From the IMG/VR virus record IMGVR_UViG_3300037067_006209, positions 1,252 to 65,251 of that record: a stretch of DNA of 64,000 nucleotides, one strand, 5' to 3'. The DNA is from a virus. Below, in pieces: positions 942 through 64,000 of this stretch. Position 1 is the first letter of the stretch, and every line of letters begins with the position of its first letter. The position numbers and the translations under genes were made by a program. The notes below the pieces were generated by a model. It searched no databases. It saw only the letters and a program-made list of their open reading frames with translations, and was not told the origin of the DNA.

Positions 942-1120
942 TTACATATATTAATAATATAATTAAAAAACATATTAAATTTTTATCAGATTGTAAATTT
1001 ATTCTATGGTTGGTTAAACAAATGATTGTATGCTACATAAAAGGTGACAAAGATGGAGTATTAGAATGTAAATGCTTTATAAAAATACATTGGAATTATA
1101 AGAGTACAAAAATAAGTTAA
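938..1120 (+). CDS. Hypothetical protein
   Basis: ORF overlapping upstream stop, GAGG RBS. Confidence 0.5.
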   Translation: MITYINNIIKKHIKFLSDCKFILWLVKQMIVCYIKGDKDGVLECKCFIKIHWNYKSTKIS

Positions 1121-1142
1121 TGAAAAGATTATTCTATAACAT

Positions 1143-1496
1143 ATGAAAGGAAAATTTATGGATATAGTTCTAACAATACCCAAAAGTGAATATAAACATG
1201 ATGATTTAGAAACAGAATATTTCAAAGAAAATAAAGATGCTTTTCAGTTTTGGTCATTAAGTAGAAAGCCTAAAAAATTAAATATTGGTGACAGAGTGTA
1301 TTTTGTTAAGAATAATAAAATAGATTCCTCAATGAAAGTATTTGATGTTAAGAAACATAGCACTATGAAATGTGAAGTAACTAATAGAGTGTGGACAAGA
1401 GAATATCAAATATTTATGAATGATTTAAAAAGTGAAAATATTAATATAGAAGTCAAAGGGTTTCAAGGCTTCAGATATAAATGGTGGGAGGCATAA
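1143..1496 (+). CDS. PUA/ASCH/EVE-like domain protein (true start probably 1158)
   Basis: PKKLNIGDRVYFV and KGFQGFRY motifs typical of PUA-like phage proteins. Confidence 0.5.
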   Translation: MKGKFMDIVLTIPKSEYKHDDLETEYFKENKDAFQFWSLSRKPKKLNIGDRVYFVKNNKIDSSMKVFDVKKHSTMKCEVTNRVWTREYQIFMNDLKSENINIEVKGFQGFRYKWWEA

Positions 1497-1498
1497 TT

Positions 1499-1729
1499 AT
1501 GAGAGATTTAAGAAGAATTGATGTGTTATTAAATGAAAGTACAGAAGAAGAATTTCATAATGGTGATATTGTAAAAATAATTACTTCATGGAATAGTCAC
1601 ACAGAATTTATTGGTAAACTTGTTTGGATAGAAACTTCAGAATTAACAATAGATATGAGCAAAGAATATGAGAGTTTCACTAAAAAGTTTAAGTTTGATG
1701 ATATTGCTAAGATTGAAAAGGTGCAATAG
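1499..1729 (+). CDS. Hypothetical protein
   Basis: GGGAGG RBS then ATG 1499. Confidence 0.6.
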   Translation: MRDLRRIDVLLNESTEEEFHNGDIVKIITSWNSHTEFIGKLVWIETSELTIDMSKEYESFTKKFKFDDIAKIEKVQ

Positions 1730-1765
1730 AAGACATATTTTAATCAAATATAAGGAGAAATATAA

Positions 1766-1993
1766 ATGAATATTGAAGAAAGATTAACAAGAATAGAAAG
1801 AAAGCTCTTTCCAGAAAACATAAAAACATTATATGATTATCATTCAAGATGTAATACTGATTCGTGTTTTTATAATAATACACATCATCAAAATTTTGAG
1901 GAATATCCAAATAGTATTGGTATATGTCCATATTGTGGAAGTAATCTAGAAATATATAATATTTATCAACATGAAGAAATAATTTTTGAATAA
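1766..1993 (+). CDS. Hypothetical Zn-ribbon protein
   Basis: AAGGAG RBS; CxxxxC and CPYCG. Confidence 0.6.
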   Translation: MNIEERLTRIERKLFPENIKTLYDYHSRCNTDSCFYNNTHHQNFEEYPNSIGICPYCGSNLEIYNIYQHEEIIFE

Positions 1994-2036
1994 TGTAATG
2001 ATATAGAATCACGATTTGATAACATAATTAAGGCAG

Positions 2037-2531
2037 GTGATACTTATTACTAAGCAGCAACAATTACAAGAATTATACACAGATTGGAATGAATTAGAGG
2101 CATATCGTAGGTTACAAGATGAATCATTCGATTTTGGAACAGGATTAATAATCAATGATTCTACTGAGAGCGAAGATGTATATTATAAAATTTCACAATG
2201 GAATATTGATGATTATATTGATTATTTGGAAGATAATTGTTACTTTAAAAAGAAGTCTAAGTACTTTAAATATAGAGGTAATTATTATCAAAATAAAGTA
2301 TATGATAAAGAATATTTTAAAATACTTCAACAAAAATATTGGTGGACAGTATACGAGAAAAATATGTTTCAAGATGATGAACCACATTATTTATTAAGAA
2401 ATTGGTTTGCTACAAATACAAGAAGATATTATAAAAAATACAGTAATCATTGTGTTAGAAAGAATAAACATTTTGGATTGAAAGGTAATAGCTATCGTAA
2501 GGTTTTTAATTATTGGAGTATGATTTGGTAA
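2037..2531 (+). CDS. Hypothetical phage protein
   Basis: 164-aa ORF between two boundary sites. Confidence 0.6.
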   Translation: MILITKQQQLQELYTDWNELEAYRRLQDESFDFGTGLIINDSTESEDVYYKISQWNIDDYIDYLEDNCYFKKKSKYFKYRGNYYQNKVYDKEYFKILQQKYWWTVYEKNMFQDDEPHYLLRNWFATNTRRYYKKYSNHCVRKNKHFGLKGNSYRKVFNYWSMIW

Positions 2532-2592
2532 GAGAACAAAAGGCGTATTTTATAAAGATTATATTGTATATTTCGGAAAGAAAGGATTAAAA

Positions 2593-2775
2593 ATGAGTGA
2601 AAAAAATTGTGGGACATGTAGAAATTCAGAAGGTATAGACGGAACTAATAGAATTGGTTGTAATATTGACAAGAAACAGCATGATATAGATTACAAATGC
2701 TTATGTTATGAAGGAGATTATGTTTTCGATTTAAGAACAGGATTCCCAATACTTCGAAAAGATGTTAATGCATAA
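2593..2775 (+). CDS. Small Cys-rich hypothetical protein
   Basis: AAAGGA RBS, CxxC. Confidence 0.55.
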   Translation: MSEKNCGTCRNSEGIDGTNRIGCNIDKKQHDIDYKCLCYEGDYVFDLRTGFPILRKDVNA

Positions 2776-2847
2776 ATGTTCTTAGAAAAGTGAACAGAAT
2801 GTATTATTTATAATAATTATTATATGCCGTTATTAAAATAAATTGTG

Positions 2848-2876
2848 TTGACATTATCAATGTAATATGCTAATAT
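2848..2876 (+). promoter_or_regulatory. SigmaA promoter upstream of tRNA/ncRNA cluster
   Basis: TTGACA-17bp-TAATAT with TG extension. Confidence 0.75.
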
Positions 2877-5116: not shown

Positions 5117-5167
5117 AAAGTGAATGAACTACGAATTTCATAATAAATTAAAGACGAGGATAATAAA

Positions 5168-6626: not shown

Positions 6627-6848
6627 ATGGCTAAAATATATTTTCAAGATTATCCAGACAAGAATCAAGCAACTGTGATGATTGGATATGTAGATTCAGA
6701 AACAGGCATGGGCGAAGCTAATTTATATAGTATTGCAAATACATATCACATTGATATTAATGAAAATGGAATAGTTAAACAAACAGGTACTTATAAGCAA
6801 GATGCATATAAATTTGCATCTGAAGCAATAGATAAAGTAAATAAATAA
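6627..6848 (+). CDS. Hypothetical protein
   Basis: AAAGGA RBS; bracketed by boundary sites. Confidence 0.6.
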   Translation: MAKIYFQDYPDKNQATVMIGYVDSETGMGEANLYSIANTYHIDINENGIVKQTGTYKQDAYKFASEAIDKVNK

Positions 6849-6894
6849 TAGATTTCATAACATATTAAAATAAATTTTTAGAGAGGAATAAAAT

Positions 6895-8082
6895 ATGAGT
6901 TACATATTTGAAAAGAAAAAGTTATATAATTATTTGGGTAGTTCATTGGTAGACACTTTGCAAAAATATAATGCATATGTAGCTGGTGGAGCTGTTACTA
7001 GTTTACTATGTAATAGAGATATTAATGATGTAGATATTTATTTTAGAAATAAAAATGATGCTGGAGACTTTGTTGGAGAAATAATTGAAAGTAGTGGTTG
7101 GATTATTAGTCATACGAAAAAGGCTACTGCCTTTAGATATAATAGTATAACTTGTCAAGTAATTCATTTTGATTATTTTGAAACGCCAGAAGATATATTT
7201 AAAAAGTTTGATTATACTATATGCATGGGAGTATTTGATTTTTCTAAAGAAGAATTTGTATTCCATGAAGACTTTTTTAAGCATAATGTCCAAAAGCTTT
7301 TAAAATTTAATGAAGATACAGCATATCCTATAATATCGGCGTTACGTATACAAAAGTATGAAGATAAGGGATATACGATTTCTAAACCAGAATATATTAA
7401 AGTATTATTAACTTGTATGAATCTTAAAATAGATAATTATGAAGATTTAAAGGAACAAATGGGTGGAATGTATGGGGTTAATTATGATAAATTACTTAAA
7501 CCAGAGGATGGTAAAGAATTTAATCTTAGTGCAATTATAAGTAAGTTAAGTGATTTAATATTAGAGAATGATTACTTTAATGAACCAGAACCTTATAAAT
7601 TTCCTGATGATATTGATGATTTGGTTTATGAAATTAATGAAACTAAGATAAAAGTATTTAAGTTCAAGAATAAGTATTTTAAATATAAAGGTAATATTTT
7701 TGAATACATAAACAAGAGTGATATTGATAAAAAAGAAATATATGAATTAGTAGATGCTGATACCATACTTCATTCTGGTATTAAGTTTTATAAATTTGTA
7801 CAAAAAACAAAAGATAATAAATATTATAGCTTTTATGATAAGAGTTTTGAATACAAGATTGAAGAAGAAGTTAAATCAAAGAAAAATGATTATTCTTCAG
7901 GAATATATTGTGGACATTTAAAAAATGTAAGTGATTTTTCATATTCAGATAAAGAAGAAAGTGTATTAATTGAATTAGAATTATTAGATATTAATGACAT
8001 ATTAAATTTTAATAGTTTTATATTAAATAGAGCGAAAGTAATAAGAGAAGTTCCGAAAGAAGAATATGAAAAATATTTATAA
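6895..8082 (+). CDS. Nucleotidyltransferase, poly(A)-polymerase/CCA-adding head-like
   Basis: YVAGGAVTSLL..RDINDVDIYF (GG..DxD) and FDYTICM. Confidence 0.7.
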   Translation: MSYIFEKKKLYNYLGSSLVDTLQKYNAYVAGGAVTSLLCNRDINDVDIYFRNKNDAGDFVGEIIESSGWIISHTKKATAFRYNSITCQVIHFDYFETPEDIFKKFDYTICMGVFDFSKEEFVFHEDFFKHNVQKLLKFNEDTAYPIISALRIQKYEDKGYTISKPEYIKVLLTCMNLKIDNYEDLKEQMGGMYGVNYDKLLKPEDGKEFNLSAIISKLSDLILENDYFNEPEPYKFPDDIDDLVYEINETKIKVFKFKNKYFKYKGNIFEYINKSDIDKKEIYELVDADTILHSGIKFYKFVQKTKDNKYYSFYDKSFEYKIEEEVKSKKNDYSSGIYCGHLKNVSDFSYSDKEESVLIELELLDINDILNFNSFILNRAKVIREVPKEEYEKYL

Positions 8083-8129
8083 TAAAATTTCTATTTCAAG
8101 TTATATTAGTATAATAGGAGATAATATAA

Positions 8130-9009: not shown

Positions 9010-9079
9010 AATTAGTACATAGAATGACACTTTTATAGCAATATAAAATTAGTAATGTTATCCAATACGTTTAAATATA

Positions 9080-12225: not shown

Positions 12226-12403
12226 GAGTATAAGACATGAAATTTTAAAAGAAGATGAAACTATTCATCTATCACCAGTAATATTTTAGGAGGTTAAATA
12301 TGATTATTTATCATGCAGAGCCAAATGTTAAGAGAGTAACTACATATTTTATGAAAGACGGTATAGTCATTACAAATATAATTTATAGGAGGATTTTAAA
12401 ACA

Positions 12404-16954: not shown

Positions 16955-17077
16955 AACAATTTTGTCACACACTTGTAATATGATAATTAGAGTAACAAAG
17001 AGTATGCGTGAGTAATTGGAAGTAATAAATTATCAATTAATGAATGAAAACGCTGATTTATCGCATATTGAAAAGAG

Positions 17078-18351: not shown

Positions 18352-18786
18352 ATGGACAATATAGAAAAATTCAAACAAGAATATATGTGTGAGAGGAAAC
18401 CCAATAATACGGCTTTGAATTCAACTGGTTTATGTTTATTGCATATATATAAAGAAATTCATAAAAACTGCTTATGGATACATGAGCAAATGGGAGTAAA
18501 TCCAAATGAAAGATTAGATGTTTTGAGTCATATAATTAATCAAATTTGTCATGAATTAGAAATAAATAGTGAAAAGATATTTACTATTTCTCCTTCAGGT
18601 AGATTAAAACCTAATCTATTTGAGAGATATATTGACAAAAATGACATACCAAAACTTTATAAAGATGAATATAAAATAGTTTGGGATAGGTACAGTCAAC
18701 TATCAGCAGAATATAACAAAAGAGAAGAAGAACGTGAAAAAGAAAGATATAATGATTCTAATTATACTTTCACATTTTTTAAATGA
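18352..18786 (+). CDS. Hypothetical protein
   Basis: AAGGAG RBS. Confidence 0.6.
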   Translation: MDNIEKFKQEYMCERKPNNTALNSTGLCLLHIYKEIHKNCLWIHEQMGVNPNERLDVLSHIINQICHELEINSEKIFTISPSGRLKPNLFERYIDKNDIPKLYKDEYKIVWDRYSQLSAEYNKREEEREKERYNDSNYTFTFFK

Positions 18787-18847
18787 AAAACGTGTTTTAT
18801 TCAGAATTGTTATTAAAATAATTTATATAATAGAAGGAGTTAATTAT

Positions 18848-25688: not shown

Positions 25689-25942
25689 TTTGGTATTAAT
25701 AAAATAAATTTATTATAAAAGGAGAGTATTATGAAAAAATTAGTAATCACAGATGGGGTAAACTACATAGGATAAGATTTAAGTTTAAATGATGGACTTG
25801 GTGAGTACATAACAACACAAAACTTAGATGAGGCAAAGAATTTTAAATGGGCATGGTTATTTGCTTCAAAGAAGTTAATTTTAAATGGAATTAGATTTAT
25901 TTTTGGTAATGATTATAAATATAATTCAGTGGAGGTTAAATA

Positions 25943-27698: not shown

Positions 27699-27926
27699 TT
27701 GCTATGAAATATATGTTCTATTACATAGGGAGATTATATCATGAATAATGAATTGTTTGTATTAAGATGTACACAATGTGGAGAAGAAATTTATATCCCA
27801 AATAAAAAAGGGAACACAGAAATAGAAGGAATAGAAATTTTCTTGGAAATGAACGATAATATAAGAATAGAATGTGATTGTGGTAATAAAATTATAATTT
27901 AATATTATGAGGGGGAAGTATATGAT

Positions 27927-28166
27927 ATGAGGTCATTGGAACAAATAATAGGCGATGATTTAGTAAAACTACATATAAAAGAACTAGAAAATAATATAGA
28001 ACAACTTTATGGCACTGAAGATACCTTTGTATGTTTTACTATTCAAAAAAGATTTGGTCAAGAATATGAAAAAAAGATAATAAAAGAAATAAGTTATGCA
28101 CAGTATACATATGAAATTGATAACGAAAATGATTCATTTAAAAAATTAAAAATATACATTGGATAG
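27927..28166 (+). CDS. Hypothetical protein
   Basis: GAGGGGG RBS. Confidence 0.5.
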   Translation: MRSLEQIIGDDLVKLHIKELENNIEQLYGTEDTFVCFTIQKRFGQEYEKKIIKEISYAQYTYEIDNENDSFKKLKIYIG

Positions 28167-28196
28167 AAGAAACATTTGATGATTAAGGAGAATTAT

Positions 28197-28364
28197 ATGA
28201 TTTCATGGTTAATTATAAAACTTTGTAGTTATGAATACAAGAAACAAAAGAAGAATAATTCATTATTTACTATTTTTTATATTAAAGGTACAGGAAAAGA
28301 TTATCCAAAGTCTTTATTATATACAGAAGTAGAGCGTGTTGCGAAACAAATGGATAATATTTGA
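28197..28364 (+). CDS. Small hypothetical protein
   Basis: AAGGAG RBS; bracketed by sites 28163 and 28364. Confidence 0.5.
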   Translation: MISWLIIKLCSYEYKKQKKNNSLFTIFYIKGTGKDYPKSLLYTEVERVAKQMDNI

Positions 28365-28381
28365 TGAAATTGACTTTTTAT

Positions 28382-30935: not shown

Positions 30936-30978
30936 ATGAATAAAGAGTTCTATTCACATTTAAAAGGAGGATAATATA

Positions 30979-35662: not shown

Positions 35663-35878
35663 ATGAATAATTCAAGTGAATGCTTACAATGTGGGTTAAA
35701 TAATCTAAAGAAAGAATTTGAAGATATAAAATTGAATCATCAAATTGAAGGATTAAGATATAAAACAGTTATTAGTTCAGAAGGGTTTTTATCGGAATTA
35801 ATAATAAATGAATTACCAGACGATATTTTTGTTAATATTTTAAAACATAGAGGATATAAGATAATTAAAGAAATGTGA
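35663..35878 (+). CDS. Hypothetical protein
   Basis: GGAGGAG RBS. Confidence 0.55.
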   Translation: MNNSSECLQCGLNNLKKEFEDIKLNHQIEGLRYKTVISSEGFLSELIINELPDDIFVNILKHRGYKIIKEM

Positions 35879-35920
35879 TAGATGATTAATTTTATAACAT
35901 ATTAAAAGGAGATTAAATTT

Positions 35921-36325: not shown

Positions 36326-36391
36326 TAAACATAAAACAACATGAAAGGTCAGTTTCATTCAATAATAAAATAAAATGGAGGATATAAGGAT

Positions 36392-36703
36392 ATGGAAACA
36401 ATTTTAATCAAACCAGAATTATTAGAACTGGTTAAGAAAGAAGAAAAAACAACTACTTGTAGGCAAGGATTACGTACATATTCACTAGCAAAAACAATAC
36501 TTAAATCAAATGCATCTGAAGATTTTGTTTATATTAATGTTAATGAGTTAAGATATTACAAACTCAAAGACGTAACAGATGAAATGGCTATGGATGATGG
36601 TTTTGAAAATAGAGATAATTTGATTCAAGTACTCCAAGGTATTTATCAAGGAATAAATGATGAATCAGATGTTACAATTGTTTGTTTTTCATTAAGTGAA
36701 TAG
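36392..36703 (+). CDS. ASCH domain protein
   Basis: KTTTCR, A..DGF...L...L..IY. Confidence 0.75.
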   Translation: METILIKPELLELVKKEEKTTTCRQGLRTYSLAKTILKSNASEDFVYINVNELRYYKLKDVTDEMAMDDGFENRDNLIQVLQGIYQGINDESDVTIVCFSLSE

Positions 36704-36754
36704 ATTGTTAGTTTTATGCTGATACAAATATAAATTATTGAAAGGAGTTTTTAA

Positions 36755-38632: not shown

Positions 38633-38654
38633 AAGTACTTAAAAAGGAGATTCT

Positions 38655-38912
38655 ATGTCAAATATTTTATTTCAGAAAGTTCCAACTAATGAAAAAGGTA
38701 ATATATTATTAGATTTGGAGCAAATTTCGTTAATTCATAATTGCATAAAAAATATTATACCAAAAGATTATACATTAATTACTTCACCTATGGAAATACA
38801 AAAGTTAGATGGTGATTTTAAGTTTGTTATGATTGGTTGTAAAATTTATACATATAATGAACTGATGGAAACTATTGAAAAAGCAAGTATGTATGATGGA
38901 TTATCCAAATAA
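38655..38912 (+). CDS. Hypothetical protein
   Basis: AAGGAG RBS. Confidence 0.55.
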   Translation: MSNILFQKVPTNEKGNILLDLEQISLIHNCIKNIIPKDYTLITSPMEIQKLDGDFKFVMIGCKIYTYNELMETIEKASMYDGLSK

Positions 38913-39315: not shown

Positions 39316-39643
39316 TACATAAGGAGAAAAGGATATGGAATTTAAGTGTAATGGAGAAGTTTTAGAAGTTAAGAAAGAAAATGGCGAATGGGAATTTATT
39401 GTTGATTGCTGTGAGAGTTTAGAGTATACCTTTGAATGTATAGCAAATGCTTTGGGAGTTGATTATACATTAGTTGAAGATGATGATGAATAGGAGTAAT
39501 ACATAATGAAAATGAAAGATAATCGCAAGCGTCCAATAAAACGCTGTCAGAGTCCACCTAATTATAGCGTGAAATGAATATTTTATCATATGTTAGAAAT
39601 TGTAAGTTTATAAAATAAATTTAAATGGAGGTAATACATAAAC

Positions 39644-52019: not shown

Positions 52020-52103
52020 AGAAATACCTACAAGGGTTTCAAATGTTATGAAATATGAGTTTTATCTCATATTATTAAAATAATATTTAAAGGAGATTAA
52101 AAT

Positions 52104-52877: not shown

Positions 52878-52930
52878 CATGAAATACAACTTTTAAGTAA
52901 TAATAATAAAATAAATTAGGGGATAATTAA

Positions 52931-53641: not shown

Positions 53642-53700
53642 ATAAAGGTATGATTTCATTAACTAATAAAATAATATTTGAAAAGGAGTTTAAATTAATT

Positions 53701-54455: not shown

Positions 54456-54503
54456 CATGATATAAAAGACAAATTCTATAATGTTTTAAGAAAGGAGTAC
54501 ATA

Positions 54504-54770
54504 ATGAAAGAATTTTTAGCTAATTTATTTTTTAAAAATATGTTACTAGAGGTAAAGAATGATAATTATAATATGGGATATAGGATAGGTTATGAAAAAG
54601 GATACAATGAAGGACATGCTAAAGGAGAAGTAAAAGGGAAAGAATTTGGATATCTTAAAGGATTTGATGAAGGTTCAAAAGGTGGTATTTATATTAATTC
54701 AAATGGAACGTGTATAAGTAATGGTAGAGGAGAATTCAAAATAGCTTTATCTGAAAATAATATATTATAA
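54504..54770 (+). CDS. GxxxG-repeat (Yae1/FliH-like) protein
   Basis: GYRIGYEKGYNEG repeats. Confidence 0.55.
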   Translation: MKEFLANLFFKNMLLEVKNDNYNMGYRIGYEKGYNEGHAKGEVKGKEFGYLKGFDEGSKGGIYINSNGTCISNGRGEFKIALSENNIL

Positions 54771-54819
54771 AATTCAGTTTCGATGACCAATAGAGAATAT
54801 AATATAAAGGAGAATAATT

Positions 54820-55176: not shown

Positions 55177-55181
55177 AATGA

Positions 55182-55403
55182 AATTCAATATTTAAAGAAG
55201 GAGTAAGACTTACTCATTGTCCTAAAGATTGTGAAAGAAGTAGATTTAATTTATTCGGACATGTACACAAGTTATGTATGATAAAACCATATGGGTTAAA
55301 TGTTGGAACAGATTGTCATAATTTTAAACCCATTAACGAAGAAACAATATTATTTTATAAGAATGCAATAGAAAAACATTATGATGATAATGTTTTTAGA
55401 TGA
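55182..55403 (+). pseudogene. Start-less C-terminal fragment of a calcineurin-like phosphoesterase
   Basis: LTHCP..NLFGHVH..LNVGTDCHNFKPI; bounded by sites 55178 and 55400. Confidence 0.75.
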
Positions 55404-55601
55404 AATGCCGTTTCTAATCAAACTGAAAGGAGAGATATTATGTGTAATTGTGATTATTGCAATGAATCAGAAGAAGAAAATTCATTTTGGGGTGACGTAT
55501 GCTATTATATGCAAGAACATTCATGTTCCGAGGATGAGGCTATAAAGATTATAAGAGAAATTTATTTTAAGGAAAAACAAAAGAAGGGAGATTGATAATA
55601 A

Positions 55602-55913: not shown

Positions 55914-55959
55914 AACTCAGATTTGGTAATATAAATACAATTGAAAGGATATTAAATAA

Positions 55960-56490
55960 TTGAGTACATATTATGCAGGAATAGGTTCAAGAGAAACACC
56001 TAAAGATATATTAAAGTTTTTTGAAAAGCTTGGTACATTTTTAGCTAAGAATGGATTAATATTACGTTCTGGTCATGCACAAGGAGCAGATATAACTTTT
56101 GAAAACGGTTGTGACAAAGTAAATGGAGAGAAAGAAATATATCTTCCTTGGAACGGATTTGAGGGTTCTAATTCAAATTTAATTGTTAGTAACCTTAAAG
56201 CATTTAAAATTGCTGAAGAATATCATCCTTATTGGCATAATCTAAAACAAGGTGCTAAAAGTTTACAAGCAAGAAATAGTCATCAAGTTTTAGGGAATAA
56301 TTTAGAGACACCATCTAGTTTTGTAATATGTTGGACTAAGAATGGTAAGGGTTCTGGTGGTACTGGTCAAGCTATAAGAATAGCAAAGGCTTATGATATT
56401 CCTGTATTTGATGCAGGAGCTTATTCAGATATTGAGATTGTTAAAAAGGAATGTAAGTTGTTTTTAATAGAACATTCAATATTAAAGTAA
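55960..56490 (+). CDS. SLOG (SMF/DprA/LOG) family protein
   Basis: YAGIGSRETP, SGHAQGAD, ARN, GGTGQA. Confidence 0.8.
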   Translation: MSTYYAGIGSRETPKDILKFFEKLGTFLAKNGLILRSGHAQGADITFENGCDKVNGEKEIYLPWNGFEGSNSNLIVSNLKAFKIAEEYHPYWHNLKQGAKSLQARNSHQVLGNNLETPSSFVICWTKNGKGSGGTGQAIRIAKAYDIPVFDAGAYSDIEIVKKECKLFLIEHSILK

Positions 56491-56799
56491 ATCGTAATAA
56501 ATTTGCAATCTGTAAATCATAGCATTATTGAATATTATAGAGTAAATAGAAGCTAGTAAATTCAAATAACGCTATAAAATGAGAGTTCTGTGATGAAATG
56601 AAAATATATTTAGTTATGAGACAATACAATTCAAATATTAAACCAATTCATGCTTACACAAATCATACTAGAGCAGTTTTGGTGTCACAGGATTATCAAG
56701 ATAAAGAACCCATTAGTTATTCACCTTGTAGGTATTATGTTGAGGATATTGAAGTAAGTGAATAAATTTGGGATTTTGTTTTAACTGAAAGGAGAAATT

Positions 56800-57234
56800 A
56801 TGGATATTACAATTAAAGAGAAAATTAGTTTATACATAGATTTTTTATCTTATATACTACCAACAAATAATGATTATGAAGTATGGATTCCTACTTGTAT
56901 TGAATGTTTACAATTTGCATTAGACAATGAAAAATTACTAAATGAAAAACCAGAATTATATCAAGATACATTGAATACATTATATCTTTTATATTCTTGT
57001 ATTGTAAAAAATGAAGAATGGGCTTATATAGAACTAAGACAAAAATTTAGAAAAATCTATAGTCCAAAAGAAGTTGGTAAAGCACTAAAAGAATTTTCTA
57101 TCAGATTAAGTAAGAAAAAAGAAGAATTGTATACAAACAATTGTTTAATAGATTTTAAAGATAATAATGGTGATTTTAAATCTGTAGAGCAGATATTATC
57201 TGAGTTAAGTATACAATTTAATAATATAAAATAA
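56800..57234 (+). CDS. Hypothetical protein
   Basis: AAAGGAG RBS. Confidence 0.6.
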   Translation: MDITIKEKISLYIDFLSYILPTNNDYEVWIPTCIECLQFALDNEKLLNEKPELYQDTLNTLYLLYSCIVKNEEWAYIELRQKFRKIYSPKEVGKALKEFSIRLSKKKEELYTNNCLIDFKDNNGDFKSVEQILSELSIQFNNIK

Positions 57235-57276
57235 AACAATATAGAATCTCAGTTTGGTTCAGAAAGGACGTTTAAA

Positions 57277-57615
57277 ATGAATATTATTTTAGGACACCTT
57301 ATAGGTGATTATTTATTTCAATCTGATTGGATGGCAATAAATAAAAAGAGCAAAGGAATTAAAGGCTTTATAGCTTGTTTATTACATAGTTTAATTTGGA
57401 CAGTGTCAGTTTATTTATTTGGGTTCTATTCTACTCATAGTATACTTGTATTTGGATTGTTGTTATTGTCTCATTTTGTATTAGATAGATGGAATTTTGT
57501 GAAATGGTTTCTCAATACTTTTAAAATAATGCCTAACCCTACAATGTGGAAAATAATAATTGTTGATAATACATTACATTTATTAATGGTATATGGTTTA
57601 TTTAAATTAATATAA
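57277..57615 (+). CDS. DUF3307-like membrane protein
   Basis: GHLIGDYLFQSDWMA..K, H..H.VLD, DNTLH; TM helices. Confidence 0.8.
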   Translation: MNIILGHLIGDYLFQSDWMAINKKSKGIKGFIACLLHSLIWTVSVYLFGFYSTHSILVFGLLLLSHFVLDRWNFVKWFLNTFKIMPNPTMWKIIIVDNTLHLLMVYGLFKLI

Positions 57616-57659
57616 TAGAAGTTCTGTTCTATTTACTTATTATAAAGGAGGAATTTATT

Positions 57660-57878
57660 ATGAGTTATAAAAATTTATGTGAAGTATGTGGAGATATTCA
57701 AGATAAAGCAGAAAATATATTTAAACTTATAGAAGAAGGAAATTATATTGAAGCACAACAAATAACAGATAAAATTACTCAATTAGGAGCATTAGCTTCT
57801 AGTATGGGACAAAAGATGGAAAAAAGATTACAGAAATATAGGAATGGAATAGAGCAACTGGGGTTTAAAAGAACATAG
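57660..57878 (+). CDS. Hypothetical protein
   Basis: AGGAGG RBS; bracketed by exact sites. Confidence 0.6.
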   Translation: MSYKNLCEVCGDIQDKAENIFKLIEEGNYIEAQQITDKITQLGALASSMGQKMEKRLQKYRNGIEQLGFKRT

Positions 57879-57910
57879 AATGTAGGTTTTATACTAAGTG
57901 AGGAGAATAT

Positions 57911-58120
57911 ATGAAGAATAATGAAATATTAACTATGGAAAAGAAAAAAGAATTAATACAATTAAATCTAGAAATGCTTAAAGGCATCCTTGAAAATAAT
58001 GGTATGGCTATAGGATTCAATAAAACCGATGATAATTTTATGTTTTTTGATAGAGAAATATATATTAAATCAGGTAAATTCAATGGATTCCAAATATCTA
58101 TACAAGAATTAAGTTATTAG
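57911..58120 (+). CDS. Hypothetical protein
   Basis: GAGGAG RBS. Confidence 0.55.
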   Translation: MKNNEILTMEKKKELIQLNLEMLKGILENNGMAIGFNKTDDNFMFFDREIYIKSGKFNGFQISIQELSY

Positions 58121-58151
58121 TCATAATAAATATAAATTGAGGTGAGGATAT

Positions 58152-58757
58152 ATTCTATTAAACGAGAACTATAGTAAGAACGAAAGCAGAGAACATTATG
58201 AACTAAAACAAATAGCAAAATACATATTATATAGTAAGGGTTATAATTGTTTGGCTACAGAAGTCTCATTAGATAAACATTGTCAATATCTTAAACAATA
58301 TAATTGGTTTAAATCTAAAGCTATAAATAAAAACATTATTGATGTTATAGGTGTTAAAGGTAATTTATTGCATTTAAGAGAAGCTACAGTGGATAAATAT
58401 AAGGTAATGGGTATAGAGTCTAAGGCATCATATGCTGACTTTTTAAATGGATTCTGCTGTCAATGTGAATATACATATATAATTGCTCCAATAGGAGTTA
58501 TACCAGTTGATAAAATTCCTGAGAAAATAGGGTTAATTGAAGTAGACCTAAATAATTATTTAATAAAACATAGTAGTAGAAAATTTGAATTTACAGGGAT
58601 TACTACAACTAAACAATGTTCTAGCCGTAAAAAAGATTTGTGGAAAAGAAATGATATTTATAGAGTTGATACTTTTAATGTATTAAGAAGAGTAGCTTAC
58701 AGAAGTTCAGTAAATGATTTGTTTAAGAACAAAGAGATTAAAATAATAGGATTATAG
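58152..58757 (+). CDS. PD-(D/E)XK nuclease, MmcB-like (probable ATT start)
   Basis: ES.EHYELK, ATEV, IDVIG, GIESKAS..DF; frame open to GAGG RBS. Confidence 0.6.
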   Translation: MLLNENYSKNESREHYELKQIAKYILYSKGYNCLATEVSLDKHCQYLKQYNWFKSKAINKNIIDVIGVKGNLLHLREATVDKYKVMGIESKASYADFLNGFCCQCEYTYIIAPIGVIPVDKIPEKIGLIEVDLNNYLIKHSSRKFEFTGITTTKQCSSRKKDLWKRNDIYRVDTFNVLRRVAYRSSVNDLFKNKEIKIIGL

Positions 58758-58925
58758 AAAAGGGGAAAATATGAATCAAGTAGATAAAGATGCTGAGAAT
58801 CCAATTATACATACATTTAATAATTATGGTTGGGAATTTATAGTTGAGTTGATGAAATATCTAGGATTAGATTGTGAAGAGTGCTAAGTAAATTTTCAAT
58901 TCATTCTATTATTAAAATAAATGTA

Positions 58926-58954
58926 TTGACTTTGTTTGCGTATAAGTTTATAAT
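58926..58954 (+). promoter_or_regulatory. SigmaA promoter
   Basis: TTGACT-17bp-TATAAT. Confidence 0.7.
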
Positions 58955-58971
58955 AATACTGAGGTGATAAT

Positions 58972-59238
58972 TTGAAATCATGTATTAGATGTGGACTATG
59001 CTGTGAATTAGAATTATGTAGTAAGGGTAGACGAAAAGATAAAAAAGTAAAAGGTAATTGTTTATATCTTATTAAACATGAAGATAATACAACGTCTTGT
59101 AAATTAGTATTAGATAATAAAATGCCTTCTTGTTGTATTAATTTTCAACAAGGATGTTTAATACAGGAAAAATATCCTTTAATGTATGAATTTCAAAAAG
59201 AATATAGAAAGGAAAAATTAAAATGTATGATGAATTAG
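58972..59238 (+). CDS. CxxCxxCC cysteine-cluster protein
   Basis: CIRCGLCC..C..C. Confidence 0.6.
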   Translation: MKSCIRCGLCCELELCSKGRRKDKKVKGNCLYLIKHEDNTTSCKLVLDNKMPSCCINFQQGCLIQEKYPLMYEFQKEYRKEKLKCMMN

Positions 59239-59534
59239 AATGTCCTTACTGTGGTAAAAATAACGATATGTCAGATGCTCTATGTGATGGACTATCAGAT
59301 GATAATAAATTTGATAAAGAGTGTGAACACTGCGGAGAAGAATTTGAAGTATATGTTGAGTTTGACCCTACATATAGTGCAAGTAAAATAGTATATGAAG
59401 ATTGTGATAAATGTTATAAAAGTGTTAGAGATATAAATAAGAAGGGAAGAACCTTCCCATTTCCGACATTAGGTAATAGACAGAAATTATGTCATGAATG
59501 TTATTGTAAACTAATGTTTAGAGAAATGGATTAA
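59223..59534 (+). CDS. Zn-finger hypothetical protein
   Basis: CPYC, CEHC, CDKC, CHEC. Confidence 0.65.
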   Translation: MYDELECPYCGKNNDMSDALCDGLSDDNKFDKECEHCGEEFEVYVEFDPTYSASKIVYEDCDKCYKSVRDINKKGRTFPFPTLGNRQKLCHECYCKLMFREMD

Positions 59535-59593
59535 TAATATAAAATAAAATAAAAGAGAGATTTTATTATGAAATATAAAGGAGGGAAATAGTT

Positions 59594-59803
59594 ATGTTAA
59601 AATATGTTTTAATTTATAATGAAGAAACAGGTTTGTGGGATGGAGAATTTATAAATAATGATGATGTTATATTTTCTGCATCAGATAAAAACACAGATGA
59701 TGTGATAAATAAAATTAATTGGCAAGCATTTCATGTAAGTATGAATAAACAATTTAATCAAAACAGCAATTCTATTATGATTGAAAGGAGATATTATGTC
59801 TGA
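59594..59803 (+). CDS. Hypothetical protein
   Basis: AGGAGG RBS. Confidence 0.5.
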   Translation: MLKYVLIYNEETGLWDGEFINNDDVIFSASDKNTDDVINKINWQAFHVSMNKQFNQNSNSIMIERRYYV

Positions 59804-60023
59804 AAAATATATTCAGTGTAATGAAAGATTACCACAAACTTCTGCATGGTATTCAGTAATAAAAGGGTTTTTGATTGGAAATGGAACTGAAGAAAGTTCA
59901 CTATGGTTTGGAGACATAGGAAATGGTAATCACTTTTATATATATGAGTCACCAAAAAGAAATAATATTCCGCTTGGTCAAGGAATTCTCGAAATGGATT
60001 GTTTAGTTACGGCATGGGAATGA
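59796..60023 (+). CDS. Hypothetical protein
   Basis: AAAGGAG RBS before ATG 59796. Confidence 0.55.
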   Translation: MSEKYIQCNERLPQTSAWYSVIKGFLIGNGTEESSLWFGDIGNGNHFYIYESPKRNNIPLGQGILEMDCLVTAWE

Positions 60024-60364
60024 AAATATTTATAGTTAAGATAAATTCAAATATTGATAATAATAATATAAGATTGGAGGATATTTTATGAAAGTTAAAA
60101 TTATTGCAAATAAGCCAATAGATAATAATTGTTCTAGTATTGAAGAGTACATAGGAATGGAATTTGGAACATATGTTGATAAAGATGGAGATTTAATGGC
60201 AAAGGTACATGGTGCTAGTGATTTTGTTTTGTTTGACGGAGAATATGAAATTATAGAAAAGTAGATAGAAAACTTATTTTAAGTCAATTTTAGAAAGGAA
60301 TATTAATAATGATAAACAGATAAATAGGTATATATTGTAAATAAGAATGGAAAGGTGGTATTAA

Positions 60365-61537
60365 ATGTATTCAAGAAATGAACTTATTGAAAAACTCAAT
60401 TACTTAAAAACAAAGTATAAGATTCCATTGGGTTCATATATAGATAAAGAAGTTAATTTTCCAACAAGAAAAGTATTTATAAGAGAATTTGGGAGTATAG
60501 AGAATGCTTTTAAAGAAGTAGGAATATTAACTTATAAAAAAGGTAAATTTTATATATCTGATGCTCAAAATGTATTAAATAATAGAAATCCTAATTTCAT
60601 ATTATTATGTTTTAGTAGTATGAGAAATAAAAATTTAACTCAATGTAAAACATGTGGATATCAATGGAGTGTATCAACAGATAGCCTATTAAGAAATAAT
60701 ACAACAAGTCATGGATGTCCAAACTGTTCATTAAAGGAATTTTATAATAAATTAGAACAAAATGATTTACAACTTATTGAATCGGCATCTAATAATAGAA
60801 AAAAAGTTATGTGTAAAAAATGTAAAACAATTTTCACTATATATGCTTCTAATGCAACTAGTAAAAATTTTAATTGTCAATATTGTTCTCAAGTAGATAA
60901 AAAGAAATATAAATTATCTATTTTAAATCGAAATTATTTACAAAGTTATTATATATTAGGATTTTTATTTTCAGACGGTAGTTTTCATGAAAATAGGTTG
61001 AGATTTTATTTACGAAAGAAAGATTCATATATTGTATATGAAATTGCACATTATTTAGGAATAACTGAATTAATTACAATTAATAAAAATTCAATTGGAT
61101 TCAGTTGTATGGACACATCAAGCATATCAGTATTAGTAAATAGATATAATATAAAAAATAATAAAACTTATACTCCATGTGATTTAACTCCTATGCTTAA
61201 TAGCGATAATTTTACAGCATTTATTATAGGATTTATTGATGGAGATGGTTATCTTGGGTATAGGTCAGATACACACGTCCCTAAATATGTAATTAAATTA
61301 CATAAAAATTGGAAAAATAATTTAAATTTAATGTCTGCACATCTTTATAATTCTATAGGATTATTACACTACCCAATATCCATAAACGTGCGTCAAAAAA
61401 ATGAAATATATGCAAGTTTGACAATAGGAAATCAAATGGTAATAAAATATTTAAACAATTTTATTTTAAAAAACAATTTGTTTGTATTAGATAGAAAATG
61501 GTTGTTAAACAAAGGGGGTGGTTTTAATAATGAGTGA
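60365..61537 (+). CDS. Free-standing LAGLIDADG homing endonuclease with N-terminal Zn ribbons
   Basis: YILGFLFSDG and FIIGFIDGDG motifs; FGS..NA..EVG repeat; CxxC pairs. Confidence 0.85.
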   Translation: MYSRNELIEKLNYLKTKYKIPLGSYIDKEVNFPTRKVFIREFGSIENAFKEVGILTYKKGKFYISDAQNVLNNRNPNFILLCFSSMRNKNLTQCKTCGYQWSVSTDSLLRNNTTSHGCPNCSLKEFYNKLEQNDLQLIESASNNRKKVMCKKCKTIFTIYASNATSKNFNCQYCSQVDKKKYKLSILNRNYLQSYYILGFLFSDGSFHENRLRFYLRKKDSYIVYEIAHYLGITELITINKNSIGFSCMDTSSISVLVNRYNIKNNKTYTPCDLTPMLNSDNFTAFIIGFIDGDGYLGYRSDTHVPKYVIKLHKNWKNNLNLMSAHLYNSIGLLHYPISINVRQKNEIYASLTIGNQMVIKYLNNFILKNNLFVLDRKWLLNKGGGFNNE

Positions 61538-62106
61538 AAGAAAATTTTATATTTCAGACACTCATTTCTAGCGTCGGACATGAGAACATCATTAAATTTG
61601 ATGATAGACCTTTCATAACCGTACAAGAAATGGAAAATACTCTGATATCTAATTGGAATTCAGTAGTTAAGAATGAAGATACAACATACATATTAGGTGA
61701 TTTTTGTTGGGATAAAGAAGATGAATGGAAGAGAATTCTTAAATTACTTAATGGAAATAAAGTGCTTATTTTGGGCAACCATGATTTAAAAAGTATGTCT
61801 GCTGAATTAAAAAGAATGTTTCAAGATGTTAAAGACTATAAAGAAATAACTGATAATGGTAAACATATAATTATGTCACATTATCCAATATTGTTTTATA
61901 AAAGCTCTTATAATCCAAATTGTTATATGCTCTGTGGTCATGTACATACAACAAGAGAAAATGATTATTTAAATAAATGGTGTACAGAATTGATAGAAAC
62001 AAAAAATTCTAATTCAGATAATTGTGGAAATATTTATAATGTTGGTTGTATGACCCCTTGGATGAATTATACACCAAGAACATTAGATGAAATTATTACA
62101 TCATGA
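61530..62106 (+). pseudogene. Calcineurin-like metallophosphoesterase interrupted by a 7-nt insert (61569-61575)
   Basis: MSERKFYISDTHF-TAGCGTC-GHENIIKF...LGDF..GNHD..HYP..GHVH..NVG. Confidence 0.8.
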
Positions 62107-62142
62107 AATTACCAATTGGTAATGTTTAGGGAAAGGAGAACT

Positions 62143-62487
62143 ATGAAAGAAGTTAGAGCAATAAAAATTGAAAAGTATATGGAAATAATGCTAGATGATA
62201 GCATTATTAAAGATAAACTAAATATTAAGGATGTTACTGAAGTATATAGTGTTGGTATTGATTTTTCAATAGATGCTAATATTTTTTATGGAGTTAAAAG
62301 TGGCAATACACTATATGAATCATGTAATATATCAGATTTTGAAAATTATGATGTAATACTAAGATTATTAAATTGGGACAAATTTTACACCGACGAACAT
62401 TATTATTTTAGGGTATTAAAATCTAATAATAATGAAGTGGTGAATTTTAGAGAAGAAAAAGAATATTTAAAATGGAGACTTATATGA
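62143..62487 (+). CDS. Hypothetical protein
   Basis: AAAGGAG RBS before ATG 62143. Confidence 0.55.
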   Translation: MKEVRAIKIEKYMEIMLDDSIIKDKLNIKDVTEVYSVGIDFSIDANIFYGVKSGNTLYESCNISDFENYDVILRLLNWDKFYTDEHYYFRVLKSNNNEVVNFREEKEYLKWRLI

Positions 62488-62774
62488 TAAATAGATATGC
62501 AAGAGGTTCTGGTAAGACAATACTAAATTTTGCTAACTTTCTAGAAAATTGCAAAAATGAAAGTAAATCTGAAGAAGATAAGATATTTTTTCAATGTATG
62601 AAAGAATCATGGTTAGAATTTAATTATGGTAAAAATAATGAAGAGAATTAGATACTTAGTAATATAAATGTAATATGAATTACATAGATAAAAGAAGTAA
62701 ACGTGAGCATAAGAGAGTTAAACATTACCAAATATGTACTAATAATATAAAGTTTAGAAAGGTTACGTGCAAAT

Positions 62775-63056
62775 ATGTATATGAGAACAACAAAAGTTAG
62801 TAAGCAATGTCATATGTGTGGAGAAACAATTGAAGTAGTTCCTAAAAACCAATTACAAGAAATTGTATCAAATGTAATGTTGGATTTAAGAACACATTTT
62901 CATTATAAAAAAGAACACAATACTTCATACTTAAAGATTAAAGGGGTTGTTAAAAGAATCTTTAAAATGTTTATGTATTTATTTTTAGGAATAATATTTT
63001 TTCCAATATGGTTAATTACATATCCATTTTGGTTGATACATGAGTTGTTAAATTAA
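62775..63056 (+). CDS. Zn-finger membrane protein
   Basis: CHMC..H..H and C-terminal TM helix. Confidence 0.55.
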   Translation: MYMRTTKVSKQCHMCGETIEVVPKNQLQEIVSNVMLDLRTHFHYKKEHNTSYLKIKGVVKRIFKMFMYLFLGIIFFPIWLITYPFWLIHELLN

Positions 63057-63084
63057 AAAATATAAAAAGAAAGGATTTGAGTTT

Positions 63085-63330
63085 ATGTGGAAATTAGAGC
63101 AAAAGTATTTTACGAATGAACTAAACAATGATGAATTTACAACTGAACAATTCGACCATATTGAAGATTATGTATTAGAAGGTTGTAGAGATACAGGTTG
63201 GTATACAGATGAAGAGATATATGATTTTCTTGATGAAATAGCAAACCTTAAACTTGGTGAATATGCATCTGTTTTAGGAAAAGATTATGGAATTATAAAA
63301 GATTTCATAAAAGTTACAAAAATTGCATAG
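63085..63330 (+). CDS. Acidic hypothetical protein
   Basis: AAAGGA RBS. Confidence 0.55.
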   Translation: MWKLEQKYFTNELNNDEFTTEQFDHIEDYVLEGCRDTGWYTDEEIYDFLDEIANLKLGEYASVLGKDYGIIKDFIKVTKIA

Positions 63331-63358
63331 TAGGATATAGGCGTAGAGCCTATTCTAC
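63330..63358. terminator. Hairpin between convergent genes
   Basis: GTAGGATATAGGC-GTAGA-GCCTATTCTAC. Confidence 0.55.
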
Positions 63359-63386
63359 ACCTTAAAAATATGATAAAACATGAATT

Positions 63387-63653
63387 TCATGCTGTTTCAA
63401 TCCGAGGATATTCAACGATATACATTTCTGTTTTGTCAATGTAATCCTTTATGTTAAACTTCATTTTATATGTTTGGTTAATTATATATACTGGATTTAA
63501 CTTCGAAGTATACCAACAAAACTTATTATTAGCACTATCTACAAAAATCATTTGATGTAAATGAGTACTAACTTTTTTATGTGTTTTAGTAATAATTGGA
63601 TTAATTTCTTTTAAAGTTAAATCTTTTGTATAACGGTCATAGAAATAATACAT
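63387..63653 (-). CDS. Hypothetical protein, the only credible minus-strand gene
   Basis: GAGGTG RBS; own promoter TTAACA-17bp-TATACT (63700-63672). Confidence 0.75.
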   Translation of the reverse strand: MYYFYDRYTKDLTLKEINPIITKTHKKVSTHLHQMIFVDSANNKFCWYTSKLNPVYIINQTYKMKFNIKDYIDKTEMYIVEYPRIETA

Positions 63654-63913
63654 TAAATCACCTCATTTATTAGTATAACTTACTTTTAATTATCTGTTAA
63701 TATTATGGGAAATATACATTGTTATGAAATTGGATTTTTATTCTATTATTCATACTATAAATATAGATAAGGTCATTATTTCGATTATCGGGAAGGAATT
63801 GTATCAAGATGAAAAAGATATTGTCGTTCATTTTCAAATTGATAATGCGAAAATAGAAATATTAGATGTTGGATATTATCATATTTAATTTTTAAATTAT
63901 ATTAATAATACTA

Positions 63914-63942
63914 TTGACAAGTTATTACATTGGTAGTATTAT
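63914..63942 (+). promoter_or_regulatory. SigmaA promoter
   Basis: TTGACA-17bp-TATTAT. Confidence 0.65.
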
Positions 63943-64000
63943 AATAATATAAGTTGTTGTTAATAATATAATTTAGAATGAAATGAAACGAGGATTTTAT

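Follow-up and report, generated by a model that had tools for sequence, protein, structure and literature searches.

A stretch of 64,000 bases, positions 1,252 to 65,251 of the IMG/VR virus record IMGVR_UViG_3300037067_006209 (hereafter, the window), contains many intergenic copies of an 18-bp dyad, ATRRAA-N6-TTYYAT, in which two 6-bp arms flank a 6-bp spacer. The enrichment of this dyad in the window is confirmed to be real and spacing-specific, and the same dyad recurs as a common device across a very wide range of large A+T-rich phages. In a pair of related phages, G003 and G004, the spacer varies most among sites and yet is the best-conserved portion of each individual site, and the sites stay in place while the genes around them change. 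These properties make it plausible, if still short of probable, that the dyad is a fixed junction at which related phages exchange genes in a site-guided manner. The window lies within a single virus contig of 65,251 bases (CheckV completeness, 36%), has a G+C content of 26%, and carries nearly all its genes on the plus strand. The distant named relatives of this phage are large Clostridium and Clostridioides phages.

Fourteen exact copies of the dyad are present in the window, compared with the 1.46 expected from 100 dinucleotide shuffles (standard deviation, 1.25; maximum, 6). In a scan of spacings from 0 to 24 bases, the 6-base spacing gave 14 matches and the 11-base spacing gave 8, two of which overlap sites with the 6-base spacing, while all other spacings gave 0 to 4. 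With up to one mismatch allowed, the whole window contains 47 matches, of which 36 are intergenic (13 of the 14 exact copies and 23 one-mismatch copies); the remaining 11 are in coding regions, which is the background level seen at other spacings. The corresponding intergenic counts at other spacings are 0 to 2 exact and 1 to 9 one-mismatch copies. An earlier inspection of this DNA by eye, without database searches (the sequence-only reading), had reported about 45 copies, 14 of them exact; all 14 were recovered at the same positions, and the total agrees well with the 47 matches. The same inspection had proposed a comparison with shuffles that keep the stop codons. In such a control, comprising 86 strictly intergenic segments (6,118 bases) with 300 mono- and 300 dinucleotide shuffles, exact copies lying wholly inside the segments numbered 10, versus means of 0.13 and 0.16, respectively (maximum, 2), and copies with up to one mismatch numbered 26, versus means of 2.46 and 2.24 (maxima, 8 and 9), so the enrichment over the stop-anchored background is evident. 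The spacers of the window sites were correctly described as variable and richer in G/C than their surroundings (35 of 84 letters, or 42%, versus 23% for intergenic DNA). When 21 loci were searched de novo for dyads with exact arms, the search proved insensitive, as it missed even the motif of the window itself.

The dyad is also abundant in phages that have little else in common with the window. G001, a 148.7-kb IMG/VR contig whose replication core shows 70 to 88% amino acid identity to that of the window and which shares almost no accessory genes with it, contains 30 exact sites, versus 4 in the control. The 176-kb human gut phage MT835469.1, whose RecA-like protein is ∼42% identical, has 18 exact sites, compared with 0 to 8 at other spacings. 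Three further genomes emerged when IMG/VR was scanned for the pattern: G003 (rated complete; 160 kb), with 85 exact sites versus 2 in the control; G004 (143 kb), with 88 versus 4; and G005 (172 kb), with 17 versus 2. G003 has just 4 proteins in common with the window, and its DnaE is 24% identical. The dyad-containing phages come from gut, landfill, and groundwater samples. Metagenome loci around homologues of the RecA-like protein were also examined (80 were collected, and the 53 of at least 7 kb were scanned; L013 and L014, which duplicate G002 and G001, respectively, were excluded); more than one copy was seen only in L076 (4 copies), L089 (5 copies), and L066 (2 copies), a result of little weight given that these loci are centered on the site-poor replication block. 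In bacterial and archaeal genomes, the extended palindrome gave single scattered matches in unrelated taxa and pointed to no particular host. The sequence of one individual slot site, searched in IMG/VR, was found in G003 and G004 and, probably by chance, in three contigs without the usual flanks.

The strongest evidence comes from G003 and G004, which are colinear and have shared core blocks with 65 to 86% DNA identity. As many as 50 G003 sites have a colinear G004 partner with an identical 6-base spacer, versus 3 in the reversed and 2 in the shuffled control. Among 53 unique pairs, the spacer is identical at all six positions in 49 and at five of six in 4, while differences are seen in the left arm of 16 pairs and in the right arm of 19. 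By position, identity is 51 to 53 of 53 throughout the spacer and 47, 45, and 39 at arm positions 2, 3, and 16, respectively; it drops to the background (∼17 to 25 of 53) from −3 leftward and from about +20 to +30 rightward. Homology of the flanking DNA is seen on neither side in 32 of the pairs, on the left only in 8, on the right only in 12, and on both sides in 1. Similarly, tblastx gave no match for 21 of the 42 intervals that separate neighboring conserved sites, partial matches for 17, and coverage of at least 60% for only 4, and the lengths of corresponding intervals often differ several-fold. One gene that is common to both genomes lies 3′ of a given site in G003 and 5′ of the same site in G004. 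As judged from these alignments, the dyads of G003 and G004 form islands whose order is retained as the intervening genes get replaced.

Two other pairs of relatives provide individual junctions. At one site shared by G005 and MT835469, 99 of 100 bases to the left are identical and homology is lost 3 to 4 bases to the right; at another, ∼72 of 100 bases match to the left and identity is 100% from the site onward. In the G001-G002 comparison, one replaced segment ends at a dyad. The earlier suggestion that the sites delimit exchangeable cassettes thus finds partial support, in G003/G004, in G005/MT835469, and at a single G001/G002 junction, though not in the window's own lineage. Breakpoints in relatives, which that suggestion had proposed to compare with the motif, lie at or within a few bases of the dyad at the two G005/MT835469 junctions, whereas those of the G001/G002 gene insertions and deletions discussed below mostly do not.

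Within each genome, all exact sites carry different spacers (13/13, 30/30, 85/85, 86/86, and 18/18); about one chance coincidence would be expected among 85 spacers by our estimate. In the proposed scheme, the two 6-bp arms would form a common recognition element and the 6-bp spacer would serve as an address, differing from site to site and being kept at the same site across related genomes. The most likely mechanism would be conservative site-specific recombination, carried out by a tyrosine recombinase of the phage, between equal-spacer sites of co-infecting relatives. Two such events would swap the gene between two sites with the gene order unchanged, and unlike spacers would block deletions between different sites of one genome. 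The conservation of the spacers fits this scheme, since a sequence that is free but matching is what the crossover region needs in conservative site-specific recombination. In this scheme, the recombinase would bind at the dyad and catalyze the exchange within the spacer, and the window's own sites would presumably behave like those of G003 and G004. Taken as a whole, an array of heterospecific sites served by a tyrosine recombinase that allows slot-by-slot swapping of single genes between co-infecting relatives appears a rather doubtful proposition.

In engineered cassette exchange, heterospecific lox or FRT sites have common arms and different spacers; only sites with equal spacers recombine, and cassettes are swapped without deletion. 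The dyads resemble this plan in their common arms and unlike spacers, although the lox/FRT exchange is an engineered one. To our knowledge, no natural array of 30 to 90 heterospecific sites has been described. The origin of phage mosaicism has long been debated, with homologous exchange at short conserved boundary sequences on one side and illegitimate joining at random, with selection acting afterward, on the other; with the dyad, its spacers, and the candidate recombinases in hand, the question becomes directly testable. If a tyrosine recombinase does swap genes slot by slot at the dyads, these phages would possess a built-in cassette exchange, which would explain how the order of hypervariable regions is maintained despite the turnover of their genes. 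Spacers that prove to be addresses would represent a new organization of viral gene flow and a natural source of orthogonal recombination sites.

Two previously described features of phage genomes come close to the dyad (here and below, known systems are compared as presented in the available parts of the cited reports). The boundary, or “linker,” sequences of the modular theory are short stretches, conserved where one gene borders the next, at which modules pass between related phages; the usual objection to that view is that they reportedly cannot be found at most mosaic boundaries (PMC3029335). In contrast to such sequences, a single defined dyad is present in 33 of the 71 roomy gaps of the window and in 85 to 88 copies per genome in relatives, and it combines a protein-site architecture with a locus-specific spacer. 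The elements termed PeSLs in T4-type phages are repeated intergenic motifs, ∼50 per genome, that occur in hyperplastic regions upstream of ORFans and are rare in the replication and virion modules; they span the region from the upstream stop codon to the ribosome site, and the insertions and replacements that distinguish close relatives map there (PMC2839356). The dyads, too, are concentrated in hypervariable regions and at the junctions where genes of one relative are replaced in another. However, a PeSL is described as combining a strong sigma-70 promoter with a stable G/C stem-loop terminator, whereas the dyad comes with neither a promoter nor a stable stem, and its conserved unit of just 18 to 22 bp is short for the homologous recombination that has been proposed for PeSLs (PMC2839356). 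In the open-access literature searched, neither this motif nor spacers that are specific to individual gene junctions of phages were found to have been described, bearing in mind that a motif is unsearchable by meaning.

Tyrosine recombinases are encoded in all the relatives that were searched for them, three in G001 and two each in G003, G004, and G005; no serine recombinases were found in these genomes. By eye, the catalytic residues R..K..HxxR..H..Y are intact in the three G001 enzymes and in the ∼310-amino-acid pair from G003 and G004. A 306-amino-acid recombinase of G001 is Xer-like, matching XerA, XerC, and XerD chains with E values of 1e-25 to 1e-27, and has a core-binding SAM-like domain; IntI4 appears just as a weak C-terminal match of this protein. 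Its identity to the ∼310-amino-acid enzymes of G003 and G004 is 22 to 25%. The earlier proposal to look for a tyrosine recombinase beyond the window was therefore fruitful in the relatives, with two or three enzymes in each, and fruitless in the rest of the 65-kb contig.

Known Xer substrates show both similarities to the dyad and differences from it. The core sites difH and difSL have partial dyad symmetry and a 6-bp central region within which strand exchange occurs, and they are served by single recombinases of 300 to 360 amino acids (PMC5357621). The left arm of difH ends in ...ATGAAAA, which resembles the left arm of the dyad with its flank, and the conserved span of the G001 sites, −5 to ∼+22, would correspond to the 11-6-11 span of Xer-type sites (PMC5357621). 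In contrast to the dyads, difH and difSL are described as occurring once per chromosome and as having arms of 10 to 11 bp, and the spacing between their ATGAAA-like cores is ∼8 rather than 6 bases (PMC5357621). The dif/pdif modules of Acinetobacter plasmids, small accessory modules bounded by many core-like sites for tyrosine (Xer) recombinases and thought to shuffle by site-specific recombination, are similar in organization to the dyad arrays; however, pdif sites are 28-bp XerC/XerD sites that are found on plasmids and rely on host enzymes, whereas the dyads have strongly conserved arms of 6 bp and are found in phages (PMC13141974, PMC7399989, PMC6449649).

A number of observations weigh against an exchange junction. 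No tyrosine or serine recombinase was found in the 65-kb contig, just as none had been visible in the window on initial inspection. The recombinases of G001, G003/G004, and MT835469 are mutually only 22 to 29% identical, so that no single conserved enzyme tracks the conserved arms. The strongly conserved arms themselves, at 6 bp, fall below the 11- to 13-bp arms of known tyrosine recombinase sites. The orthologous G003/G004 pairs were recognized via their spacers, for which the ratio of 6/6 to 5/6 matches and the two controls correct in part. Changes in the arms show no association with the loss of flanking homology: left-arm differences occur in 3 of the 9 pairs whose flank is homologous versus 13 of the 44 others, and right-arm differences occur in 3 of 13 versus 16 of 40. 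Of the six ends of three gene insertions or deletions beside the replication block of G001 and G002, only one is at a dyad, and UvrD is placed differently in the window and in G001 with no dyad nearby. All the comparative support comes from relatives and none from the window's own lineage: the window and G001 have one spacer in common, versus none in the control, which indicates that the “address” is not kept at that distance, and spacer sharing among the window, G001, MT835469, and G003 is at the control level. Four public DNA runs carry this stretch (no RNA run is listed), with the same strain throughout, and their contigs contain no variant joined at a dyad, although contigs drop rare variants. 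Finally, selection for exchangeability is second-order, and the conserved spacers could have another cause.

The dyads are located within operons, in the untranslated DNA that separates a stop codon from the next ribosome site. Their placement between genes was analyzed for the 34 window sites that are flanked by two plus-strand genes. The site starts within 11 bases of the upstream stop codon in 26 of the 34, with the stop codon forming motif positions 2 to 4 in 7 and ending at position 1 in 5, so that the original description of sites lying at or just after stop codons, often with this overlap, is accurate. The next start codon is found 16 to 50 bases past the site in 25 of the 34. In the relatives, the stop codon forms positions 2 to 4 in 15 of 40 sites of G001 and 10 of 35 sites of MT835469. 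The start codon is 16 to 30 nucleotides past the site in 20 of 40 sites in G001 and 9 to 15 nucleotides past it in 14 of 35 sites in MT835469, where the ribosome site abuts the right arm. The 14 exact copies and the 23 intergenic one-mismatch copies in the window are as follows:

1120..1137, exact dyad; the upstream stop codon ends at motif position 1, and the next start codon is 20 nucleotides downstream
1726..1743, one-mismatch intergenic site
2003..2020, one-mismatch intergenic site
2536..2553, one-mismatch intergenic site
5124..5141, one-mismatch intergenic site
6841..6858, one-mismatch intergenic site
8082..8099, one-mismatch intergenic site
9019..9036, exact dyad; followed by a TnpB element
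12255..12272, one-mismatch intergenic site
17044..17061, one-mismatch intergenic site
18783..18800, exact dyad; motif positions 2 to 4 are the stop codon
24601..24618, one-mismatch intergenic site
25699..25716, one-mismatch match in A/T-rich DNA, possibly by chance
25715..25732, one-mismatch match overlapping a ribosome site, possibly by chance
27704..27721, exact dyad
28163..28180, one-mismatch intergenic site
28364..28381, exact dyad; followed by the second TnpB element
30936..30953, one-mismatch intergenic site downstream of the second TnpB gene
35878..35895, one-mismatch intergenic site
36341..36358, exact dyad with perfectly palindromic arms
36700..36717, one-mismatch intergenic site
38639..38656, one-mismatch match whose spacer is a ribosome site, possibly by chance
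39569..39586, one-mismatch intergenic site directly upstream of the replication block
52048..52065, exact dyad where the replication block ends
52879..52896, one-mismatch intergenic site
53642..53659, one-mismatch intergenic site
54462..54479, exact dyad
54767..54784, one-mismatch intergenic site
55400..55417, one-mismatch intergenic site containing the stop codon of a start-less 73-amino-acid frame
56574..56591, one-mismatch intergenic site
57615..57632, exact dyad with perfectly palindromic arms
57875..57892, exact dyad; motif positions 2 to 4 are the stop codon
59549..59566, exact dyad with perfectly palindromic arms
60265..60282, one-mismatch intergenic site
63373..63390, exact dyad whose right arm contains the stop codon of the minus-strand open reading frame (ORF) 63387-63653
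63724..63741, exact dyad upstream of the minus-strand ORF; a crude gene call starts a 54-amino-acid ORF in its left arm
63983..64000, exact dyad in the last bases of the window, 41 nucleotides downstream of a sigma-A-like promoter

Among the same-strand gaps of at least 26 bases, 33 of 71 hold a dyad with up to one mismatch; the 43 gaps of up to 25 bases contain no exact site and a single one-mismatch site. The intergenic DNA is free of dyads in the stretches 39569-52048, 18783-24601, and 12255-17044, which correspond to the replication block, the vWA-PP2C-kinase operon, and the ligase/PNK block, respectively. The sequence-only reading had singled out these blocks as devoid of copies; they are, but the genes there are tightly packed and most gaps are too short for a site. 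Its statement that the sites are not tied to sigma-A promoters also stands: none of the 11 strong sigma-A-like intergenic promoters was reported with a dyad at −40 to +150, in a scan that missed the last 18 bases of the window, where the only exception is found (promoter 63914-63942, with the exact dyad at 63983 located 41 bases downstream). Overall, the promoter consensus scan is at the background level (110 promoter-like sites versus 105 in shuffles), and so are terminator-like sites in the 52- to 64-kb region (2 versus 1.4 expected). Strong sigma-A-type promoters (e.g., 9536-9564, 13704-13732, 19643-19671, 25439-25467, and 28893-28921) precede self-contained genes in dyad-free gaps; the genes behind them encode TnpB, HNH, the vWA/PP2C/kinase operon, and HicA.

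The symmetry of the dyad points to a protein site. No covariation was found at positions 3/16 and 4/15. The A-C combination occurs in 10 of 30 G001 sites, and a hand tally of 85 G003 sites gave 43 G-C, 17 G-T, 23 A-C, and just 2 A-T combinations. Avoidance of two weak halves, together with frequent mismatched “pairs,” suggests the additive binding energy of two half-sites, which is the opposite of pairing, and a palindrome without pairing suggests double-stranded DNA read by a symmetric protein. The dyad is thus in keeping with a double-stranded DNA target of a protein that has two-fold symmetry or of two protomers. The preferred half-site is ATAAAA in G001 and ATGAAA in G003, G004, and MT835469, and it is mixed in the window. 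Weaker conservation extends beyond the 6-6-6 core, from −5 to about +22 in G001 and to −2/−1 in G003/G004, with the right-hand signal overlapping the ribosome site. The sites of G001 have C/A at −2/−1 and G at +20, those of G003/G004 have CC, and those of the window have neither; the flanks are asymmetric, with A at −5, G/T at −4, and C/A at +21/+22.

Between many sites and the ribosome site there is a second short element, which is TTAACAGA-like in G003/G004 (L173, L099) and located 3 to 8 nucleotides past the site; its counterpart in the window is AACATA-like and occupies positions +19 to +26 past the sites. A sporulation-sigma-like reading of this flank, based on the CATA-like element after the site, was dropped because the ribosome site would be cut off.

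A two-fold symmetric protein could also be a regulator. According to this explanation, the dyad would be an operator for a dimeric phage regulator that acts within operons, and the mosaic junctions would be a by-product of general recombination at the sole DNA that the relatives share in hypervariable regions, as has been proposed for PeSLs (PMC2839356) and for boundary sequences (PMC3029335). The operator could act as a transcriptional roadblock, as stoperators do, or be bound by a recombinase-fold repressor, such as MrpR on the SPbeta repeated element (SPBRE). The 6-6-6 dyad with additive half-sites suits a dimeric regulator, as does the location of the sites in short gaps of early regions with small genes and their scarcity in late modules (only 5 of the 30 exact sites of G001 are inside its 55-kb plus-strand module). 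Gaps that carry either a strong sigma-A promoter or a dyad, and rarely both, would suit a split between autonomous genes and genes under programme control. The encoded RecA-like/AAA_24 and SSB proteins could use short homology, and the absence of linkage between arms and flanks also favors this explanation. There is also a precedent in MrpR, a repressor with a tyrosine recombinase fold that acts on a repeated intergenic element in a large Firmicute phage; the SPBRE of SPbeta gave 9 ChAP-seq peaks (PMC10516654). The stoperators of cluster A mycobacteriophages are asymmetric 13-mers in short intergenic spaces that are bound by monomers in an orientation-dependent manner (PMC9283540). The dyads are likewise present in many copies in short intergenic spaces within operons, but, unlike stoperators, they have a palindromic core with equivalent halves, and neither stoperators nor SPBRE are credited in the available parts of these reports with a conserved spacer that is specific to each locus or with a position at gene replacements (PMC9283540, PMC10516654). 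A regulator that reads the arms would leave unexplained why 49 of 53 spacers are identical when 16 left and 19 right arms differ. Further, immunity operators normally diverge fast, yet the arms are common to phages whose DnaE proteins are 24 to 37% identical; an island of 18 to 20 bp is short for general recombination; and of the two families searched for in G000, G001, and G002, HTH_3 and HU/IHF-type proteins, neither was found. The operator, which would account for the distribution and the symmetry of the dyads, is regarded as an unlikely explanation, albeit the most serious alternative; if it is correct, large Firmicute-type phages would share a widespread and previously undescribed regulatory motif that acts throughout the genome.

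The other explanations are much weaker. A short intercistronic hairpin that affects mRNA processing, stability, or translation upstream of the ribosome site would account for the strictly intercistronic location of the sites, their orientation along the gene strand, the abutting ribosome site in MT835469, and the asymmetric flanks; conserved “loops” with variable “stems” at orthologous sites also resemble structured RNAs. However, the energy of a forced 6-bp hairpin is close to zero, with a mean of +0.2 kcal/mol in the window (6 of 14 below 0) and +0.26 kcal/mol in G001 (5 of 25 below 0), and the lack of covariation and the frequencies of A-C and A-U combinations given above speak against a stem. 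The putative stem is A/U-rich and has no T run 3′ of it, so the features of an intrinsic terminator (a G/C-rich hairpin and a U run) are not present. In addition, the loop of each site is kept even though both neighboring genes have been replaced, and there is no obvious RNA partner. Such an mRNA signal is accordingly considered very improbable.

That the dyad is a promoter recognized by a sigma factor or an RNA polymerase specific to the phage can hardly be credited: although the sites are numerous, intergenic, and located upstream of genes in gaps that carry either a sigma-A promoter or a dyad, although G001 encodes a sigma-70-family protein, and although the left arms of two sites, each combined with a hexamer downstream, reach the score of a weak sigma-A promoter, the motif is palindromic and the start codon is often so near the site (9 to 15 nucleotides in MT835469 and 16 to 30 nucleotides in G001) that the transcript would lack a ribosome site. 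No T7-type polymerase was found in G000, G001, and G002, a weak negative given that the search control matched nowhere.

Integron attC sites are imperfect palindromes of 57 to 141 bases that fold as single strands and move with their cassettes. The dyads, initially described as integron-like, resemble attC arrays in that mostly promoter-less small genes are separated by sites that follow the stop codons, and phages have been reported to contain attC-like sites and parts of integrons (PMC9892861). Nevertheless, a true integron array, in which each cassette would carry its own folded attC-like site and be moved by an integron integrase, is scarcely conceivable: the sites of G003 and G004 keep their order while the genes change, which is the opposite of a gene-borne site; the 18-bp site shows no pairing signal and is no folded attC; and neither an IntI-type enzyme, an attI site, nor a common promoter was found, with no Phage_integrase match in the 65-kb contig and with enzymes in the relatives that are Xer-like or phage-integrase-like. 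The integron label is thus not supported, while the fixed junction for gene exchange, considered above, retains the idea of exchangeable cassettes.

Apart from the dyads, the window encodes a replication block that consists of a RecA-like AAA_24 protein, SSB, a replisome organizer, DnaB with a LAGLIDADG intein, a PD-(D/E)XK nuclease, DnaE, an ERCC4 nuclease, and UvrD. Other genes encode an NAD ligase, a PNK-HD protein, PP2C and a kinase, HicA, two TnpB proteins, macro, NADAR, and ADP-ribosylglycohydrolase proteins, 4 to 5 HNH proteins, and many small ORFans. Searches of 60 window proteins against Pfam and PHROGs gave no match to a regulator, a sigma factor, or a recombinase. The intein-containing DnaB helicase is encoded at 41760-44174; its G001 homologue, of 451 amino acids, lacks the intein.

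In the public runs mentioned above, the listed contigs, which come from groundwater (2022) and landfill (2018) samples of three studies, have 0 letters that differ from positions 44001-64000 of the window. The joints listed in these contigs, with sides of 20 to 23 bases, fall away from the dyads, except for one coincidence at 59549.

Several local arrangements deserve mention. The two TnpB genes (IS605 OrfB-type), at 9585-10715 and 29451-30854, lie in unusually long gaps, each of which opens right after an exact dyad (9019 and 28364, respectively); the right arm of the dyad may double as the insertion target or the target-adjacent motif (TAM) of the TnpB element. The start-less 73-amino-acid frame at 55182-55403 (region 55178-55417) contains a GHVH motif and starts directly 3′ of a two-mismatch dyad-like sequence. 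It has no Pfam match, and its similarity to the window metallophosphoesterase has an E value of just 0.12. The frame may be what is left of a gene that was truncated at a junction. Two consecutive genes have the same terminal run of ∼18 bases, at 11514-11531 and 11884-11901, which runs into a degenerate dyad. The gene between these runs (11572-11892) is the sole accessory gene in common with G001 (66% amino acid identity). Its context differs there, with one-mismatch sites on both flanks, and the DNA similarity is limited to the ORF (11571-11890). The sole clear minus-strand gene of the window (63387-63653) is bracketed by two exact dyads, has its stop codon in the mirrored arm position, and is preceded by a sigma-A-like promoter on the minus strand (63700-63672). 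Outside the window, the minus strand of G001 encodes, at positions 57964-59994 (L005:17964-19994), a Cas3-like protein of 676 amino acids in which HD and DEAD-box helicase domains are combined with a Cas3 C-terminal domain.

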